From a virus, in IMG/VR virus record IMGVR_UViG_3300045988_148808, positions 1-48,242 of that record: DNA of 48,242 nt. One strand, written 5' to 3'. A model generated the notes under the pieces. The model searched no databases. It saw only the letters and a program-made list of their open reading frames with translations, and had not been told where the DNA came from. Below are positions 1 through 48,242 of this stretch, in pieces (position 1 is the first letter of the stretch; every line of letters starts with the position of its first letter). The position numbers and the translations under genes were made by a program.

Positions 1-85
1 AAAAGTGGCTTCTGGTTTGTCTTTCAGACGGAGCAGCTCCGGAAGGGTTCGTGAGGCCGTCGAACGAATTTCTCGCAAAAAAAAC
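1..85. repeat. Terminal overlap, identical to 48158..48242 (genome closure)
   Basis: nt 1-85 (aaaagtggcttctgg...ctcgcaaaaaaaac) match the last 85 nt base for base. Confidence 0.95.
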
Positions 86-8112: not shown

Positions 8113-8205
8113 ATGCTGGGGTGTTCTGTGTGCGGTATTCGTTGTATATGCTCTTCATGCTATTGCCGCCATCATAAATTCGGTCTCAAGCATTTGTTGA
8201 AATGA
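8113..8205 (+). CDS. 30-aa Cys-rich peptide, stop overlaps the methylase start
   Basis: MLGCSVCGIRCICSSCYCRHHKFGLKHLLK. AAGG lies 5 nt upstream. Its TGA overlaps the ATG of 8202 (ATGA), and the methylase has no SD of its own. Confidence 0.3.
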   Translation: MLGCSVCGIRCICSSCYCRHHKFGLKHLLK

Positions 8206-9338
8206 GATACGGACTCCCCTACAAGGGCAGCAAAAACAAAATCGCCGAATGGGTTGTAAGCATTCTGCCTCATGGCGGAACATTGTGCGATCTGTTTTGT
8301 GGCGGATGTGCCGTGACACACGCGGCAATGGTTTCCGGCAAATACGACCGGTTCATCATCAACGATATCGATCCAGTTCTTCCCGGAGCGTTCGTCAAGG
8401 CGATATCCGGAGGGTTCGCCGATGAGAAGCGCGTCATCGACCGTGAAACGTTCGACCGACTCAAGGATGCAGACCCCTATGTCGCGCTGTGCTGGTCGTT
8501 CGGAAATGGTGCAAAAAACTATCTCTGGAATGACGAAATCGCAGGGGTGAAACTGCTGGCGTGCAAAATGATCATGGCGGACACATGGCAAGAACGCAGG
8601 CGATACTATCGGCAATTCATTCTGTGTTTACAGCAAAAACGGGAAGAGCTTGAAGAAAGAAAAGCCCGCCAGGCTGATTACATCAGGGAGCATGGGGAGA
8701 CGGAAGACTATCTGCGCAATGAATTGAGAAATGCCCTGAAAACATCCGGGAGGACGGCTGCCGACGTTGATCGTCATCTCGGGACGAAAGGCATGGCCGG
8801 CCACTACTTCGGGAAATCACAATGGGCGTTCCCGACAAGAGCGGCATACGAGAAAATGCGAGAAATCCTTCCACTGCCGGAATATGACTATTACAGTCAA
8901 GGCCTGAAAAGTCTGGAAAGACTGAAAAATCTGCAAAAAGTAGAAAGTCTGGAAAGAATACAAGATCTGGAGAGTCTGGAGCGACTGGAAAGATTTCAAA
9001 AGCTACAAGGAGTAGAACCCATTCCAGAAGTACGAACGGGAGATTATCGGGATATTGCCCTTCCGGATGACGCCGTGATTTATTGCGATATCCCTTATCA
9101 TGGGACAGACGAATACAAGAGCGCCTTCGATCACGAGGCGTTTTACGATTGGGCGGAAAGCCGGAAACAGCCGGTATTCATTTCCGAGTATGTGATGCCG
9201 CAAGACCGGTTCAGATGCATTGCCGAACGCAGGAAAACATCCAGTTTTTCCGGTTCGAGCAATTCGACGAAAACGATAGAAAAGATTTTCATCCCGATCC
9301 ATCAGCCATACAGCCCGCCAGCAAGCGGGCTTTTTTAA
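8202..9338 (+). CDS. DNA N6-adenine methyltransferase (D12/Dam class) with a repeat-containing insertion
   Basis: N-terminal YKGSKNKIAEWVVSILP...LCDLFCGGCAV and a catalytic-type CDIPYHGT (DPPY-like) motif. Confidence 0.85.
   Translation: MRYGLPYKGSKNKIAEWVVSILPHGGTLCDLFCGGCAVTHAAMVSGKYDRFIINDIDPVLPGAFVKAISGGFADEKRVIDRETFDRLKDADPYVALCWSFGNGAKNYLWNDEIAGVKLLACKMIMADTWQERRRYYRQFILCLQQKREELEERKARQADYIREHGETEDYLRNELRNALKTSGRTAADVDRHLGTKGMAGHYFGKSQWAFPTRAAYEKMREILPLPEYDYYSQGLKSLERLKNLQKVESLERIQDLESLERLERFQKLQGVEPIPEVRTGDYRDIALPDDAVIYCDIPYHGTDEYKSAFDHEAFYDWAESRKQPVFISEYVMPQDRFRCIAERRKTSSFSGSSNSTKTIEKIFIPIHQPYSPPASGLF
8901..9011. repeat. imperfect tandem repeats coding (K/E)SLERL heptad-like units inside the methylase
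   Basis: AGTCTGGAAAGA at 8910 and 8946, AGTCTGGAGCGA at 8973. Protein: GLKSLERLKNLQKVESLERIQDLESLERLERFQKLQG. Confidence 0.7.
9313..9336 (+). terminator. Rho-independent terminator in the methylase 3' end
   Basis: GCCCGC-cagcaa-GCGGGC followed by T6. Confidence 0.65.
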
Positions 9339-9343
9339 TGACG

Positions 9344-9742
9344 TCAACGTGCCATTTTCTCGATAGCCGAATCCGCCAGAAAAGCAGAGCGGCTTCGGAT
9401 ATTATGTGTTTGCAGGTAAGCATCAATAGATGCCAACAGACTGGATGGAAGCGTGATAGTCAGCCTTTCTGTTTTTCCAAGATATGGAGTGATGTCGATA
9501 TCCACCAGCCCCACGTGGAAGCCTTTGTATTCCGGATTTTTGACAATATCCTCGACTTTAGAAGGAGTTGGTATTTTCCGGTCATTTCTGGCCATGTTAT
9601 CCAGCTCAATTTTTGCAGCTTCCACGGCAACGGCATAGCAGTCTTCAAACGTATCGGCTGCCGTGAATACGTCCAGATCGGGTATTCGGACATCACAGGC
9701 TGTTTTTTCGTCGCCCAATTCGATAACGATAGGATATTTCAT
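9344..9742 (-). CDS. hicB: HicB-family antitoxin
   Basis: Likely start MKYPIVIELGDEK... Typical HicB N-domain plus a C-terminal RHH-like TITLPSSLLASIDAY...RSAFLADSA. Confidence 0.85.
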   Translation of the reverse strand: MKYPIVIELGDEKTACDVRIPDLDVFTAADTFEDCYAVAVEAAKIELDNMARNDRKIPTPSKVEDIVKNPEYKGFHVGLVDIDITPYLGKTERLTITLPSSLLASIDAYLQTHNIRSRSAFLADSAIEKMAR

Positions 9743-9805
9743 GATATCTCCTGTTTGTTTCACGGTTTGACAAGGCATGAATGATGAGGAAAACCTCATC
9801 ATTTA

Positions 9806-9985
9806 TTAAAGACCGGCTTTCTTTAGCAATCCTTTGACAGTACCGAGTTTCAAATCTTTTCTAGGGTGAGGCACAGCAAGATTGTTAGGATTGCCCGCTT
9901 TCGTAAAAATATGATGACTGCCATCTATTCTTACGAGTTTCCAACCATTATCGGTTAGCAACTTGATCAGTTTTTTACTGTTCAT
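9806..9985 (-). CDS. hicA: HicA toxin (59 aa; below the ORF-track cutoff)
   Basis: Own translation: MNSKKLIKLLTDNGWKLVRIDGSHHIFTKAGNPNNLAVPHPRKDLKLGTVKGLLKKAGL, the canonical HicA. Confidence 0.9.
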   Translation of the reverse strand: MNSKKLIKLLTDNGWKLVRIDGSHHIFTKAGNPNNLAVPHPRKDLKLGTVKGLLKKAGL

Positions 9986-27736: not shown

Positions 27737-28156
27737 TCATTTTATGGGCTGCCAATTCTTCGTACTTCTGTTTGCTTTCTTGTGAGCGAGGTCATTGCAG
27801 ACATAGAAGGAATTTGGAAGGTCGTTCTCGTTTGCATATTTGTATTTCCCAAAGTAAACATCATTCACGATTTTTTTCAGTTGTGCGTCTGAGAACGATA
27901 CATTGAATTTTGGATTCAGATTCTTTTTTATCGTTGCATTATGTTTCTTTTCGGCTTGTTTCAAATTGTTGAACGCTTCCTGCGGGGATTTCTTGAAGTA
28001 ATCTCTTGATTGGATTGCCTGATGCATATAATCGAAACCTTTCACGCATTTAATGAAAACTTCGTTATATACCTGGCTTTCTTTCCCGGAAAGAGACTGC
28101 CCTTGAGAGGAAAAAGAAGTAAGAAACATGAAAATGGCAAGAAAGTATTTTTTCAT
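27737..28156 (-). CDS. small secreted protein (signal peptide), A+T-rich insertion gene
   Basis: Likely start MKKYFLAIFMFLTSFSSQG. Opposite strand to all flanking tail genes. Confidence 0.55.
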   Translation of the reverse strand: MKKYFLAIFMFLTSFSSQGQSLSGKESQVYNEVFIKCVKGFDYMHQAIQSRDYFKKSPQEAFNNLKQAEKKHNATIKKNLNPKFNVSFSDAQLKKIVNDVYFGKYKYANENDLPNSFYVCNDLAHKKANRSTKNWQPIK

Positions 28157-28268
28157 AAAAGGCGCTTTCCGAAAAAGAACTGAACAAGGGCAAAAGGAAC
28201 ATGTGAAATATTCTAGCCCATAGAGATTTGTTGAGACTATCGCATTTTTTGGGAAACACTGCCACAAC

Positions 28269-28292
28269 AGCCCGGATCGCTCCGGGCTTTTT
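28269..28292 (+). terminator. hairpin + T5 terminator
   Basis: AGCCCGG-atcgct-CCGGGCT followed by TTTTT. Confidence 0.6.
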
Positions 28293-28304
28293 CGCAATTT
28301 GGAC

Positions 28305-28859
28305 ATGGAACCAATACGACAAGCATTCCTGATAGGGTATGCCTATGCGACGGGTGTTCGGTATGGACTGGGTTTGCGGTTGGCTCTGGATGGAGAATTC
28401 AGGGAAAGTGAGCATCCGAGAGACAAGGACGGGAAGTTTGCGAAAAATGGCGAATCAGGCGGGAAAGAAGATATATCCAGCTTGTTGAAACCGGAAATCA
28501 AAGGCGTCAGAGGAAAAGCTGCCATAGAAGCTATCCGTAAAGCAGGGAAAGGATACGTGAAAGGCGCGTTTTACCGGAACGATATCGGCGATATTGATCT
28601 GTTCTGGGGAAATGATGATATCGGGCTGAAACATATTTTGCTGAGACGTCAGGCGCAGGGCGTGAATATGGGAAAGTTCCTGAATGATCTAACCGTGACC
28701 ATAGAAAACGGCAAATTAAGGGTGAACAGTGGCGGGAATTTCGAGATATGGAATGACGGTAACCTTGCTGTTGTTTACCCGTCATTTAAGGGGAACAAAC
28801 TGAATTTTGTCTGTACGGCATTTCGACAAAAAAAGCCTTCCTGGATAAAGAAGGCTTGA
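28305..28859 (+). CDS. EHPRD-motif protein with a putative PBECR-type (polyvalent-protein) nuclease-like domain
   Basis: ...FRESEHPRDKDGKFAKNG... then ...AFYRNDIGDIDLFWGNDDIGLKHILLRR...KLNFVCTAF. Assigned from memory of polyvalent-protein modules. Confidence 0.45.
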   Translation: MEPIRQAFLIGYAYATGVRYGLGLRLALDGEFRESEHPRDKDGKFAKNGESGGKEDISSLLKPEIKGVRGKAAIEAIRKAGKGYVKGAFYRNDIGDIDLFWGNDDIGLKHILLRRQAQGVNMGKFLNDLTVTIENGKLRVNSGGNFEIWNDGNLAVVYPSFKGNKLNFVCTAFRQKKPSWIKKA

Positions 28860-35977: not shown

Positions 35978-36198
35978 AAAATAATAGCTAGTATTTATCA
36001 GGTGTTTGAGCTGATTGTTTTTTGTGCATGGCGAAACGAAAATTTAACTAACCTATTGATTTTAAATAATTTATAAACTGCCTTCTAAGCCGTAGGTCAG
36101 TGGTTCGAATCCACTAGGGCAGGCCATTAAAATCAATCACTTATCATCATTCCCGACTTTCTTTGCATCTTCATGGCGAAACACCTGTTTCGCCATAA
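35965..36198. promoter_or_regulatory. attP region: tRNA-like core flanked by arm-type repeats
   Basis: ATGGCGAAAC or its complement at 35966-35975, 36028-36037, 36173-36182 and 36187-36196. The 13-mer TGTTTCGCCATAA is at 35965 and 36186. Confidence 0.6.
36077..36126 (+). other. 3' half of a tRNA-Arg(TCT)-like sequence (attP core), not a complete tRNA gene
   Basis: Anticodon loop CTTCTAA, variable loop AGGTC, T-arm AGTGG-TTCGAAT-CCACT, acceptor 3' strand AGGGCAG, then G-CCA. No D-arm or 5' acceptor upstream. Confidence 0.75.
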
Positions 36199-37253
36199 CC
36201 GGTTTTACCGTCTTGCCTTTTTGCTGTCGTATGTAGATTTCCGTCGTTCTGGTATTGGTGTGCCCCAGCAGGTTGGATGCCTCGACGATGCCGTAAATGT
36301 CCCTTATGTCTGTTGCCGCTTTGGCGCGTAAATCGCGGAACTGAAAACGCTGGAAGGGTATTCCTCGTTCTTCGGCTTCTTGTTGCGCAGCATCTCTTGC
36401 TTTATTGAAGTGGTAGCGGAAATATCCGTCATTGTTCAGCATGTGTCCGGCCGGATCCGCCAATATCAACATACTGACCACACCACGTTTTTTGATCCTG
36501 TCCAGGACATTCGCCAGTTCTCCAGTTATTTCTATTCTCAGCTTTTCTCCGGTCTTGTTTTGGGTAATTTCCAGATATCCGTTTTTGATGTTATCCCAAC
36601 GCAATTTTTTGACATCTGTCGGTCTTTGACCAGTCAGATAGGCAATATCCAGGGCATCGCGTAATACATCTTTCGAGTGTTTATAAACGAGTGCCAGTTC
36701 TTCATCTGATACATATATTTTTCGTTTTTCGTCCACTTTCATTTGACGTGTCAATCCTGTAACCGGGTTGATTACTGTCATGTATCCTCTTGCAATCGCC
36801 CAGTTGCAAAAAAAGAAATTTGATTTCTTTTTTTGCACTGGCTTTGGATGACCGACGATAATAATAAGGCATGATTTGTGCTGGCCGGATATCATCAATA
36901 TCCATTGGACCATACACCGGAGCAAGAAATCGCCAATATGTTTTCCTGTCTTTAATGGTTCGATCCGACAGTCCGGATTCTTTTCTGTTTTCAGCCCAAA
37001 CCATGTATTTCTCGAAGACAGCCTGAAAAGAGTTTTCTGTCACGACGGGGTGATGTTCTTGTCCTTCCAGTTCTGCCCATCTTATTTTCGCTTTGGGAAG
37101 GTCGCTGCCCAAAGCGATGGTTTTGCGTTTCCCGTTTTTGTCGCGAGGGAGTTCGTAAAAATAGTAGCGTTTTTCGTCTCCTCGTTTGTTTTTACGGATA
37201 CGCACGACCATGTGCTGTGGCAAATCAAGATGTTTTTTCTTGATGGCTATCAT
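36137..37253 (-). pseudogene. int: tyrosine integrase interrupted by a 1-nt frameshift
   Basis: N-part ORF 36702..37253 (arm-binding-type N-terminus) and C-part ORF 36137..36925 (LTGQRPTDV...LLGHTNTRTTEIYIR) overlap in different frames. A7/T7 runs lie at 36808-36834. Confidence 0.85.
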
Positions 37254-37462
37254 TACGCAACCTTACTAAAATCCGGAAATGATTTTTTTATTTGAGGTTG
37301 TAAACTCATTTTTTCACGACAATAGCTACGACTGACAACAGGGTATCCATTTGCATTTTTTGCAAAATGCCATCCGTTCGTCGTCAGCCACCGAATTTGT
37401 GCGGATTTTTTTGTCCTTCCGGTTAAAAAGGCCAGTTCATCCTGATTCAGAAATTCGTCCAT
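37253..37462 (-). CDS. xis: excisionase-like protein (DUF4224-like)
   Basis: ...LNQDELAFLTGRTKKSAQIRWLTTNGWHFAKNANGYPVV... Its stop overlaps the int start. Confidence 0.6.
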   Translation of the reverse strand: MDEFLNQDELAFLTGRTKKSAQIRWLTTNGWHFAKNANGYPVVSRSYCREKMSLQPQIKKSFPDFSKVA

Positions 37463-43552: not shown

Positions 43553-43581
43553 ATTATAAGATTACTGATATTATAAATCAA
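43553..43581 (-). promoter_or_regulatory. early-left promoter candidate (TTGATT-17 nt-TATAAT on the minus strand)
   Basis: Plus-strand AATCAA 43576-43581 and ATTATA 43553-43558. It abuts the palindrome ATAAGTA-N11-TACTTAT (43581-43605). Confidence 0.55.
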
Positions 43582-43652
43582 TAAGTATAATGATACTGTA
43601 CTTATGTTTTTCTGATAAAATTGATGCAGGTCAATTTTGAAGGGTAGGGTAA

Positions 43653-44081
43653 ATGACAGTAATTGCATGGGATGGGAAAACATTGGCAGCAGACAGACAG
43701 ATCACATCTGGTTACACAAAGAACAAACGGATAACGAAGATCAGGAAATATGGGAATGTGCTTTGTGGGGTGACGGGAGAAACAAAATATGCTGATGCTT
43801 TGTTTAAATGGGTAGAGGGCGGAAGAATCAAGGAGAGATTCCCGTCATTTAGCGACGACAATCAGGTCATGCTGGTGGTTATCGATGATAAAGACTTGAT
43901 CGAGTATTGGTCGTCGACCTTTGAAACAAAATATCCGCGTGATGAAAGAACATCATGGGGAAGCGGAAAAGAATTGGCTTTAGGCGCAATGGCGGCTGGG
44001 GCTGACGCAAAAAAGGCGGTAGAAATCGCCTGCGAATACGATCTGTATTGTGGAGGAGGGGTTGATGTTGTCGAAGCGTAA
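43653..44081 (+). CDS. HslV/proteasome-beta-like Ntn-hydrolase (142 aa)
   Basis: MTVIAWDGKTLAADRQ... has Thr after Met. ...TSWGSGKELALGAMAAGADAKKAVEIACEYD... matches the HslV-like motif layout. Confidence 0.65.
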   Translation: MTVIAWDGKTLAADRQITSGYTKNKRITKIRKYGNVLCGVTGETKYADALFKWVEGGRIKERFPSFSDDNQVMLVVIDDKDLIEYWSSTFETKYPRDERTSWGSGKELALGAMAAGADAKKAVEIACEYDLYCGGGVDVVEA

Positions 44082-44445
44082 TTTGTCAACAGAACGGGTG
44101 ACGAAAGTGGAGTTGATCCCGGATATCGCAGTCAAGAACAATGTTGTGTTCCAACTGAACTGCGATCTTGGTATCAAGGAATTTGCTGTCCAGTTGGGTA
44201 CATCAATGGGGGAAACAGTTGGTTATCTTATATTTAGCGGAGATGGGAAACACTTTGAAGCAACGAAGTTAATTTCTCAGGATGAGAAAGTGCCGCACAA
44301 ATTAACTGTGTTGAGAGGGACACTATGGTCTTACCCGGAAGTGATTTCAAATCAGAAATTAGCTTGTCTTTCAGAGACTGATCCGTATTTTGACTCTGAT
44401 TTATGGCGTAAATCAGTTGAGCAAGTGTGTTCTCATGAATTTTGA
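44065..44445 (+). CDS. hypothetical protein, partner of the HslV-like gene
   Basis: GGAGGAGG SD. Overlaps the HslV-like 3' end and overlaps the convergent ORF 44234..44737 by 212 nt, so it is uncertain. Confidence 0.4.
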   Translation: MLSKRNLSTERVTKVELIPDIAVKNNVVFQLNCDLGIKEFAVQLGTSMGETVGYLIFSGDGKHFEATKLISQDEKVPHKLTVLRGTLWSYPEVISNQKLACLSETDPYFDSDLWRKSVEQVCSHEF

Positions 44446-44737
44446 CGGTAATTGTGTCGATATTGGCTCTAACACCACCTTCCTGGCTGATGTAGTCCCA
44501 TCCGTCAGCAGTTAGTTCGGGAGGGAATGCGCAAGAGTATTTGCCATCTACACTTCGGATGATGTGACTGACAACAAGCCCTTTTTGCTCAAGATATTGG
44601 AGATTGACAATATACTTTTTCTGGTTTTCGTTGGCTTTTTCTTGGAACCACTCGACACTACCCATGTGATCTGGTGCGGTTTCGGCTAATTTTTGAAGAA
44701 TTTCAATGTAGTAATCTCTCTCTAATAGCGGTTCCAT
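44234..44737 (-). CDS. DUF2513-like wHTH protein with a C-terminal helical extension, co-oriented downstream of cI
   Basis: ...KKYIVNLQYLEQKGLVVSHII...PELTADGWDYISQEGGV... parallels the 4326..4703 product. Starts 3 nt after the cI stop. Confidence 0.6.
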   Translation of the reverse strand: MEPLLERDYYIEILQKLAETAPDHMGSVEWFQEKANENQKKYIVNLQYLEQKGLVVSHIIRSVDGKYSCAFPPELTADGWDYISQEGGVRANIDTITVKIHENTLAQLIYAINQSQNTDQSLKDKLISDLKSLPGKTIVSLSTQLICAALSHPEKLTSLLQSVSHLR

Positions 44738-44740
44738 ATG

Positions 44741-45457
44741 TCAGTTCCCGAAGTTCTTGAAATTCATCGGCAGGGCGCGCAACACTTTGCCAATGATTCG
44801 TGTTTCGTCTGGTTTTTCGCTCCAGAGCCAAGACGCATATTTTTCATTGTCAGATTGGACGAGAATATTTCTGCCTGCAAGAGAAAGTCTCTTACAAAGT
44901 AATTCACCACCGTGCAGAATGATATATATCCCTTCGCCTTTGTACTCAGTGGCGACTGTATCGACAAAAAGCAGATCATTCGGATTGATGGTGGGTACCA
45001 TGCTGTCTTTTGCAGCAAGAATGACCTTTATATTTCCTGCTCTATTCAAATTTCCGATTAATTCCTGTGCTGTTTTGCTGGACATGACCAGACGCTGAAC
45101 AATCTCAGGATAATCAGGATTAAGCAAACCAGTTCCACAAGCCGCACGAACATCGAGTAAATCGTAAACGACACTGTTTCCATATTTTGATGTACGTGGT
45201 ATCAGGTCAAGCGGCCCATCTTCTTGTTGTGCGTCGTCTTTTTGGTTGTTAGGGTACTTGGGTCCCAAGCCTGTTTCCAACCATAAGGCGTTTACTCCCA
45301 GTTTGGCCGCTATTGCGGCAACGTAAGTAGTTTTTTACGAGGCGCCGCTTTCAAGTTGTGAGATAGCAGATTGTTTTATGCCAACAGCATCCGCAAGCTG
45401 TTGTTGAGACAGCCCTTTTAAATTTCTTTCTTCTTTTAATCTTCGTCCAATATTCAT
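44741..45457 (-). pseudogene. cI: CI-type repressor (XRE HTH + S24 peptidase) with an in-frame TAA at codon 41
   Basis: MNIGRRLKEERNLKGLSQQQLADAVGIKQSAISQLESGAS-TAA(45335-45337)-KTTYVAAIAAKLGVNALWLETG... then ...AAKDSMVPTINPNDLLFVD...LCKRL. Confidence 0.85.
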
Positions 45458-45493
45458 ATGAGCATCCTAATACAAAAAATGATAAATATTTTG

Positions 45494-45522
45494 TTGACTT
45501 AAAATATAAGCATGCGCATAAT
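45494..45522 (+). promoter_or_regulatory. early-right promoter candidate (TTGACT-17 nt-CATAAT)
   Basis: -35 at 45494-45499, -10 at 45517-45522. The cro ATG begins 7 nt after the -10. The 12-mer AATATAAGCATG is repeated at 45503 and 45520. Confidence 0.6.
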
Positions 45523-45528
45523 ATAAGC

Positions 45529-45771
45529 ATGATTGCTCAATTAATAACCACCAAACTGATCGAAAAAGGATTCCGTCAAGAGGAAATCGCAAAGCACCTT
45601 GGCTGTACCCAGTCAAATGTGAGCTTGCTACATACAGGCAAGACGAAAAGTCCATCTTTCGATATTTGCTTGGCTTTAATCAAGTTGGCAAAAGAGAACG
45701 GTATCGAAGTACCGGGAATTGAATTTATGGAAAAAGAAGCCCGTGAACGGTCAGATATGGAAGAAAAATGA
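45529..45771 (+). CDS. cro: Cro-like HTH repressor
   Basis: Divergent from cI. ...KGFRQEEIAKHLGCTQSNVSLLHTGKTKSP... is an HTH. No SD or leader. Confidence 0.7.
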   Translation: MIAQLITTKLIEKGFRQEEIAKHLGCTQSNVSLLHTGKTKSPSFDICLALIKLAKENGIEVPGIEFMEKEARERSDMEEK

Positions 45772-45944
45772 AGTGTGTTTCGGGAAAGAACCATGCATAC
45801 GATGAAAAGGCCCTGATCCGGTACTTCATCAATGAAGGCTGGACAAGGCGATCAGCTGTTGAACTGGCACGAGGCATGATCGAACGCGGTTCGTACCTGC
45901 CGGATCACGAACATGCGAAGTATCTGAAACTGGAGGGGAAATGA
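45768..45944 (+). CDS. 58-aa hypothetical protein (below the ORF-track cutoff)
   Basis: Own translation: MKCVSGKNHAYDEKALIRYFINEGWTRRSAVELARGMIERGSYLPDHEHAKYLKLEGK. ATGA overlap with the cro stop. Confidence 0.4.
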   Translation: MKCVSGKNHAYDEKALIRYFINEGWTRRSAVELARGMIERGSYLPDHEHAKYLKLEGK

Positions 45945-46081
45945 CAGAAAAACTGACGGAATATCAGAACAGATTGATATCCGAAACATTGTGCAAGATG
46001 GTTCTGGACGGAGTAGCGCCGGACGAAATTAGGAAAAAACAGTGTTTCCTGTCAGAACAGATGACGAAACTGAATGCACCG

Positions 46082-46567
46082 TCATTTTCCGAGAATCTCT
46101 GTTCTGCAACCGTGGCAATAGAGGACGGGGAATCTGTTTCCGACGCTTCCCCGAAATTGTCTTTGCAAAACGGACTTGATCCCTTTATCGAAGCAGCTCT
46201 GGCAAATATAGTGGAAGGGCTCCGTCATGACTGGCGTTCCCGAATGGCTTTCTACTGGGGAGACATTACGCGCATATGCAAAGTTGCCGCTACCAGGGAC
46301 AGTCTCGACCAAAGAATATTTTTCCTTCTCCGAGATGGATTCGCGCAGTTTTCTCAGTTCCTCTGTTTTTTCGAGTATCTCTTTTTGCAAGGAAAGTATC
46401 GCGACTTGAGCGTCGATGAGCTGGTCTCCGAGCTGGAGAAAGGTAGCAATCGGTACCTCGGAGAGGCCGGAAGAGCGTATCGATTTAATTATTCCGATGG
46501 CGCTGCTGATTCCGGACAAGACACTGGCTCCGGTTGTGACCGCTGTGGCGACAGTAACAGGATCCAT
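46082..46567 (-). CDS. hypothetical protein: Gly/Ala/Ser-rich hydrophobic N-terminus, coiled coil, C-terminal zinc ribbon
   Basis: AAGGAG SD. MDPVTVATAVTTGASVLSGISSAIGII...LQKEILEKTEELRKLRESISEKEKY...YICQSCFDKG...LYCHGCRTE. Confidence 0.6.
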   Translation of the reverse strand: MDPVTVATAVTTGASVLSGISSAIGIIKSIRSSGLSEVPIATFLQLGDQLIDAQVAILSLQKEILEKTEELRKLRESISEKEKYSLVETVPGSGNFAYARNVSPVESHSGTPVMTEPFHYICQSCFDKGIKSVLQRQFRGSVGNRFPVLYCHGCRTEILGK

Positions 46568-46692
46568 TTTTAGGAACTCCTTTCGTGGAAGTTTGTTGTT
46601 TGGCGACACAAGCATAACACGTCAGGAGTTCCAACCAAACCACAGGTAATGACATGACTGGAAACGACAAAAAATGAAAAACATTATCAGTT

Positions 46693-48109: not shown

Positions 48110-48242
48110 GCGTCGAAGTAATGAAATGGGCTTTCGAGCAGGATTTGCCAGCCCGGGAAAAGTGGCTTCTGGTTTGTCTTTCAGACGGAGCAGCTCCGGA
48201 AGGGTTCGTGAGGCCGTCGAACGAATTTCTCGCAAAAAAAAC
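48106..48242 (+). CDS. 5' part of the junction-spanning wHTH ORF (continues at nt 86 of the circle)
   Basis: ATG 48106 overlaps the DUF1364 stop (ATGA). MSVEVMKWAFEQDLPAREKWLL... Confidence 0.65.
   Translation, partial: MSVEVMKWAFEQDLPAREKWLLVCLSDGAAPEGFVRPSNEFLAKK
48158..48242. repeat. Terminal overlap, identical to 1..85
   Basis: See feature 1..85. Confidence 0.95.

Follow-up and report, generated by a model that had tools for sequence, protein, structure and literature searches.

An ochre codon in the cI-like repressor gene and a frameshifted integrase gene in a probable lytic-only derivative of a temperate Oxalobacter myovirus

The repressor gene and its control region

The window (the whole stretch of DNA analysed here, 48,242 nt) carries a lambdoid early region in which a cI/LexA-like repressor frame and a cro-like gene diverge from a shared control region (Table 1). 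Read on the minus strand from ATG 45457, the repressor frame translates as MNIGRRLKEERNLKGLSQQQLADAVGIKQSAISQLESGAS and then meets TAA (45337 to 45335; context TCG TAA AAA ACT), past which the same frame continues as KTTYVAAIAAKLGVNALWLETG... for 197 further codons and ends at TGA 44741-44743. The TAA is the sole interruption of this 238-codon frame. The mutated base is a plus-strand A at 45337, where the relatives have G.

Table 1. Positions of the lysogeny genes, regulatory elements and terminal repeat in the window
Feature	Position	Strand	Evidence
Terminal overlap, identical to 48158-48242	1..85		Sequence comparison
attP core, 45 nt: 3' half of tRNA-Arg(TCT), anticodon loop to CCA	36082..36126	+	Exact matches
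Tyrosine integrase gene, in two frames	36137..37253	-	N-part ORF 36702-37253, catalytic ORF 36137-36925
Excisionase gene, intact	37253..37462	-	phrog_4764, E=8e-18
PL-like promoter TTGATT-17-TATAAT with one ATAAGTAT motif (43581-43588)	43553..43581	-	Promoter match
167-aa gene, phrog_3983 (function unknown), directly downstream of cI	44234..44737	-	Profile match
cI/LexA-like repressor frame, 238 codons, broken at codon 41	44741..45457	-	HTH_3 and Peptidase_S24
S24 self-cleavage/dimerisation domain, now untranslated	44783..45058	-	Pfam, residues 134-225
Ochre TAA in place of Gln41 (CAA)	45335..45337	-	CAA in L001-L018 and L040
40-aa peptide, the only product expected as written	45335..45457	-	AlphaFold2 helices, 434 repressor alignment
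cI-cro intergenic control region	45458..45528		Promoter match and repeats
Second private SNP, plus-strand A where relatives have G (18/18 loci)	45486		Alignment
cro-like HTH regulator, divergent from cI, same as in L001	45529..45771	+	Pfam/PHROG

The two halves of the frame belong to one gene and not to two neighbours, since the Pfam HTH_3 match spans the stop without a break (residues 7-60, E=5e-13) and a Peptidase_S24 match follows downstream (PF00717, E=3.5e-14), both far beyond chance. Residues 3-64 align without gaps with residues 2-63 of the phage 434 repressor (E=1e-7), and the protein is ~35% identical to annotated cI/C2 proteins of lambdoid phages. In an AlphaFold2 model of the intact allele (mean pLDDT 80), helices span residues 3-13, 18-25, 29-37, 46-53 and 57-62, the linker (71-92) is disordered, and residues 95-229 form a domain rich in beta structure; residue 41 lies in the loop 38-45 between helices 3 and 4, after the recognition helix. 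Downstream of the stop, the codons for Ser152 (45002-45004) and Lys189 (44891-44893) are preserved, and the putative AAC-G cleavage-site region (residues 105-108) is still encoded. Across 22 homologues, S152 and K189 are invariant, and A105, A106 and G108 nearly so. That the Ser/Lys pair and the AAC-G region are still encoded beyond the stop suggests a recent inactivation, not two genes. In its XRE/434-type HTH, in its S24 domain with Ser, Lys and a linker cleavage site, and in its divergent cro-like partner with a shared operator and promoter region (the operators being predicted from sequence), the frame is that of a CI/LexA-type repressor; with TAA at codon 41, it is not the uninterrupted ORF that a functional one needs. 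The gene is thus a member of the repressor family by descent but a null allele.

The 40-aa peptide, whose ORF is itself recorded in the protein collections (P0121), comprises helices 1-3 of the five-helix 434-type domain, without helices 4 and 5, the linker or the S24 domain. Gene callers have chosen internal TTG starts that yield 179 and 175 aa; the product from these would be S24-only, without a DNA-binding domain. The 167-aa phrog_3983 gene is probably co-transcribed with cI. The preliminary description of this DNA had reported an in-frame TAA in cI, with a complete S24 domain in the same frame past it, and both observations are borne out by the translation and the Pfam matches. It had also located the stop between helices 3 and 4, as the model does, and within the helix-turn-helix motif itself, which has to be corrected: the stop falls midway through the five-helix HTH domain, just after the recognition helix.

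The cI-cro region is nearly invariant across 18 related loci. The predicted PR (TTGACT-17-CATAAT, 45494-45522, plus strand) matches the consensus at 10 of 12 positions and is overlapped by two exact 12-mers, AATATAAGCATG (45503-14 and 45520-31), which the window shares unchanged with every relative but L002. The shorter motif ATAAG[C/T]AT occurs in the window in three copies, two at PR and one at the PL-like promoter near 43581. A further copy, beside the cI start (45482-45489), is intact in the relatives and is destroyed in the window by the SNP at 45486; this change may be an OR3-like operator or PRM mutation. Because the genome-wide count of ATAAGYAT (3, against 1.95 expected) is not above chance, it is the position of these motifs and of the 12-mers at the promoters that makes them putative operators.

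The -10 element of the predicted PR (CATAAT) stops 6 nt ahead of the cro ATG (45517-45531, plus strand), so short a distance that the cro mRNA may have little or no leader. Two ORFs overlap on opposite strands beyond cro: 46082-46615 (minus) matches phrog_1244 (E=1e-19), and 45941-46573 (plus) is a called gene in relatives.

Alleles of cI in relatives

A homologue search of 5.8 billion proteins returned a 238-aa protein (P0001) that corresponds to the read-through product and is 100% identical to it except for Gln at the stop position; beyond it, full-length HTH+S24 homologues of 220-250 aa form a graded series and share its architecture. The DNA encoding P0001 (L001) is the closest intact relative and spans just 1.4 kb. 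Over its 1398 nt it differs from the window at two positions, namely the C to T change in codon 41 (CAA to TAA) and one base in the cI-cro spacer. A DNA pattern with Y at the mutated base picked up both possible alleles in IMG/VR and in JGI/ENA metagenomes, a human gut assembly among them. The codon is CAA in 18/18 loci (L001-L018, on 16 distinct contigs from IMG/VR, JGI and ENA metagenomes), and five further loci likewise have CAA/Gln. L040 has CAA, and contigs of the P0106 type encode Gln. At the protein level, position 41 is Gln in P0001-3, P0005, P0098, P0106, P0108-10, P0115 and P0120. With CAA in all relatives examined, the change from Gln41 to ochre is a private C to T transition, and the inactivating repressor lesion is absent from the wild relatives. 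The preliminary description had taken the stop for a point nonsense mutation (for example, CAA to TAA) and not a gene boundary, and had proposed a comparison with the cI genes of relatives; the sense CAA found at this codon everywhere examined agrees with its reading.

When the cI region and bases 1-25000 were compared by megablast with GenBank phages and E. coli genomes, nothing useful emerged; the sole hit was a 323-nt terminase stretch with 71% identity to an Erwinia phage. Neither a cI protein-pattern search of representative genomes nor a DNA pattern scan of genomes for the stop-codon context found anything. The 179-aa protein P0004 was considered as a second truncated allele and rejected: its contig, L002 (Logan SRR31464343), has CAA and four homopolymer-type indels, and the 179-aa call is most likely an artefact of this noisy assembly and not a real truncation.

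Integrase, attachment site and the rest of the genome

The tyrosine integrase gene is also disrupted. One of its two ORFs encodes a product that resembles integrase N-terminal regions, and the other, which overlaps it in another frame, contains the PF00589 catalytic domain (E=2e-13). When joined, the two parts align over their full length with intact integrases of 371-374 aa, with 90% identity to P0122 and 77% to P0124 (100% of the length for both), and 55% to an Oxalobacter formigenes protein. A DNA alignment with three relatives (L019, L029 and L030) places a 5-nt gap in the window at a T-run, about 36807-36815. Complete homologues across this junction, of about 365-374 aa, all read KFLSV(L/F)xNW, where the window reads KFLF and then changes frame. 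A homopolymer slip from T6 to T7 was considered as the lesion and rejected, since the alignment with relatives gives the 5-nt gap. In addition, H126Q (36876-36878) is private to the window; the residue is His in 6/6 homologues compared. The window therefore has no continuous ~370-aa ORF of the lambda-Int type, and the integrase gene, as judged from its reading frames, is a second dead lysogeny gene, frameshifted ahead of the catalytic domain. The preliminary description had not noted this lesion, which strengthens its reading of the repressor gene.

The attP core lies directly 3' of int. Of 15 exact matches to it in representative genomes, 12 come from genomes or MAGs labelled Oxalobacter and 3 from MAGs labelled Oscillospiraceae and Alistipes, which may be mis-binned. 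At the matching genome sites ARAGORN calls tRNA-Arg(tct), and these matches at the tRNA-Arg(tct) of Oxalobacter identify both the attP and the host genus. On one contig of O. paraformigenes HOxBLS the exact core is present three times, suggesting tandem or multiple prophages at tRNA-Arg.

The preliminary remark that the genome is circular fits the terminal overlap, which leaves a unit genome of 48,157 bp, assembled as a circle. PHROG profiles are matched essentially end to end for terminase, portal, head protease, major head protein, sheath, tube, tape measure, baseplate, fibres, endolysin, spanin, O-like initiator and RusA, and by these profile matches the lytic functions appear intact. Homology scans of the regions comparable with relatives gave no other broken gene that was real. 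A candidate third frameshift, between the methyltransferase (8202-9338) and ORF 9083-9784, did not hold up: the methyltransferase reading frame is single and intact, and ORF 9083-9784 is the antisense of a HicB-like gene. Both disrupting lesions (2/2) fall in the ~1.8 kb of lysogeny genes in a genome of 48 kb, which by our own calculation has P of about 0.0015 under random placement. Rather than random error, this clustering suggests that selection on lysogeny has been relaxed or reversed.

The HicB-like antitoxin gene (PF15919, E=5e-33; 9344-9802, minus) is oriented against the genes around it, and the 59-aa ORF beside it (9806-9985, minus) could encode a HicA toxin. The methyltransferase itself is of the D12 class and plus-stranded, with a run of SLERL/LERxQ-like repeats between its N-terminal and C-terminal (DIPY) motifs. 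Among the tail genes, 28299-28859 (plus) encodes a protein with a PBECR1 (Barnase/EndoU/colicin-like nuclease) domain; it adjoins a 189-aa minus-strand ORF without matches (27737-28306).

Proposed lifestyle and its setting

Based on these findings, we propose that the window is the complete genome of a real phage that derives from a temperate Oxalobacter myovirus, has lost repressor and integration alike, and is lytic-only and of the clear-plaque (c) type; we hold this reading to be quite probable. The ancestor would have been a temperate myovirus with a lambdoid early region that infected Oxalobacter. The C to T change turned Gln41 into ochre, so that translation would halt after helix 3 and produce no linker or S24 domain. 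By analogy with the 434/lambda/LexA family, the repressor would have to dimerise via its C-terminal domain and bind operators over PR and PL for the lytic genes to be silenced. The 40-residue fragment would be expected neither to dimerise nor to bind operators, in which case PR and PL would never be shut off, cro and the lytic cascade would be constitutive, and each infection should end in lysis. The 5-nt deletion in int would additionally abolish integration at tRNA-Arg(TCT). The phenotype predicted from this scheme is one of clear plaques, no lysogens, and growth only in hosts without a homoimmune prophage.

The preliminary description had spoken of a clear-plaque or virulent genotype. The first half of this holds in the sense of a repressor-null c-type; a lambda-vir-type genotype, as scored at PR, does not, since the two operator-like repeats that overlap PR are unchanged and only the 45482-45489 site is altered. 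With its PR-overlapping repeats unchanged, the phage should still meet repression in lysogens of the same immunity type. Such an immunity region is frequent in the data, and homoimmune prophages would block an immunity-sensitive, repressor-null phage in many hosts. This is about as compatible with a variant that is transient or complemented as with a lytic lineage that has become established.

A complemented variant could take the form of a defective prophage that persists as a passenger in a polylysogenic Oxalobacter, with a co-resident phage of the same immunity and attP supplying repressor and integrase in trans and the circle appearing only after co-induction. The cI N-terminus and the operators are almost unchanged among many otherwise different phages, attP too is common to many of them, the three attP-core copies on one HOxBLS contig suggest tandem prophages, and excisionase and attP are intact, all of which would suit such an arrangement. 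However, the contig closes on itself without host flanks, and the lesions do not favour complementation either, since lost selection for lysogeny explains them equally well. We therefore regard this alternative as unlikely.

We regard it as very unlikely that the TAA arose as an error of consensus or assembly, or that it is a rare variant in a population that really has CAA. The codon does differ from L001 by a single base, and L002 shows that noisy assemblies with homopolymer indels exist in these collections; the same truncated products, however, are recorded from a second contig, of 48,212 nt. The truncated cI peptide, the two integrase fragments and the 167-aa protein next to cI each appear in the cluster tables under one pair of contigs: the window's own, a 48,242-nt JGI/IMG contig, and the 48,212-nt one, which is known from these tables. 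NCBI, ENA and Logan are listed there as further sources for the same products. Taking the overlaps of 85 and 55 as k-mer overlaps, 48,242-85 = 48,212-55 = 48,157, and these matching units indicate that a second assembly, made with another k-mer, arrived at this genome too, lesions included; both assemblies may come from the same reads. Also against an error, there are no scattered indels, the large genes tested fit their profiles end to end, and the TAA co-occurs with the 5-nt deletion in int, the private change of a conserved int residue and the private operator-region SNP, a concentration in one module that random error would not give.

That the TAA is decoded by read-through, suppression or recoding, with full-length repressor still being made, is extremely unlikely: stop-codon recoding is known in some gut phages, and UAA read-through, by near-cognate decoding, tends to insert Gln and so, if it occurred naturally at a low rate, would recreate the wild-type cI, but TAA ends about a third of the ORFs here (33 of 89 heuristic ORFs, with TGA in 49 and TAG in 7), among them those of the large structural genes, conservation of the stop is lacking, with CAA in every relative, and ARAGORN found no tRNA gene, hence no suppressor tRNA, in the genome, so that recoding is excluded. 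RNA folding downstream of the cI stop gave no notable structure (z=-1.55). A scan for same-frame ORF pairs and HSPs spanning stops returned mostly non-coding-frame noise and was restricted to the coding strand, where comparison with homologues found no in-frame stop in any conserved gene besides cI. The genome thus bears the marks of neither a recoded phage nor programmed read-through.

The lytic-only derivative that we propose has well-known counterparts. What clear-plaque (c-type) mutants share with it is a loss-of-function point mutation in a CI-type repressor of an otherwise intact temperate phage, together with the expectation that lysogeny is neither established nor maintained while immunity sensitivity is kept. 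Lambda cI amber and ochre mutants and P22 c2 mutants are clear-plaque, repressor-null mutants of this sort. The clear-plaque mutants of TP901-1 (PMC4892519) appear to be of the same repressor-null kind. Unlike the mutants selected on plates, the present one is a metagenome-assembled genome of an uncultivated Oxalobacter phage, and it carries the int frameshift in addition. Mutants of this kind are familiar but are not often seen in genomes assembled from the wild.

The repressor itself recalls the 434 repressor, lambda cI and LexA in its five-helix domain, its S24 Ser/Lys dyad, its divergent cro and the overlapping PR. It differs from them in that the putative cleavage site is Cys-Gly, within Ala-Ala-Cys-Gly, and not Ala-Gly, that the operators seem to be direct 12-mers without obvious palindromes, and that the gene is interrupted. 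Cys-Gly is the cleavage site of UmuD.

Lytic mutants derived from prophages have been reported to arise and bloom in the gut (bioRxiv 10.1101/575076). The best documented parallel comes from mouse guts, where the ultravirulent Shimadzu mutants of a Roseburia intestinalis prophage carry operator (OR1/OR3) and cro mutations, which allow escape from the resident repressor (bioRxiv 10.1101/575076). The present phage is similar in being a derivative of a gut-commensal prophage with mutations in the cI-cro region that was recovered as free phage, and a bloom at the expense of its host is plausible. In contrast to Shimadzu, it has its repressor destroyed and its PR-overlapping repeats kept, with one OR3-like site altered, and it is predicted to remain immunity-sensitive.

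Since the mechanism has been textbook phage genetics for decades, the interest of this genome is contextual and not conceptual. It is raised by the double lesion in the lysogeny genes, by the recurrent cI lesions among relatives and by the host. Oxalobacter is an oxalate-eating gut bacterium linked to protection from oxalate kidney stones. Several predicted prophages have been reported in Oxalobacter genomes (PMC9812493; PMC3391216), and our literature searches turned up no isolated Oxalobacter phage. The genome bears on how lifestyle is called: a repressor, an integrase and an attP suggest a temperate label, yet as written the genome would neither repress nor integrate. It may also serve as a natural example of a temperate phage just past the loss of lysogeny, one base away from the wild allele and with the catalytic residues still encoded. 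A naturally lytic derivative whose attachment site is known, and which a one-base change could repair, would be a useful start for Oxalobacter phage genetics, and for asking whether prophage-derived lytic variants contribute to the loss of Oxalobacter colonisation.

Three independent cI lesions are present in the group: the ochre codon of the window, a deletion in L040 and a 3' truncation in the P0005 lineage. In L040 (1087-1706; Logan SRR31518542), 97 nt of cI are deleted between two 9-bp direct repeats, TGGAAACAG, and the gene is frameshifted after the HTH domain, giving an HTH-only product. From its different cI N-terminus and spacer, L040 is probably heteroimmune. In the P0005 lineage (L003-L010, at least 10 contigs of 40-43.5 kb), cI runs to codon ~199 and is there fused to the PL region; the ~1.2 kb lost is equivalent to ~43,640-44,860 of the window, and cI (for example, L004:10001-10702) is thereby without the last ~40 residues of S24. 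No integrase was found in this lineage at the position of the window's int, and it may be an established ex-temperate lineage. We suggest only tentatively, and with some doubt, that repressor loss is recurrent in human-gut Oxalobacter phages, perhaps as established lytic ex-temperate lineages that shape Oxalobacter colonisation. If these were true lytic lineages and not dead-end mutants, such natural predators could help explain why human colonisation by Oxalobacter is patchy and unstable.

The segment between PL and the cI operon carries, on the opposite strand (43653-44081, plus), a gene for a protein of 142 aa that resembles HslV-family peptidases (phrog_1040, E=1e-37) and has Thr at position 2; this segment is missing in the P0005 lineage.
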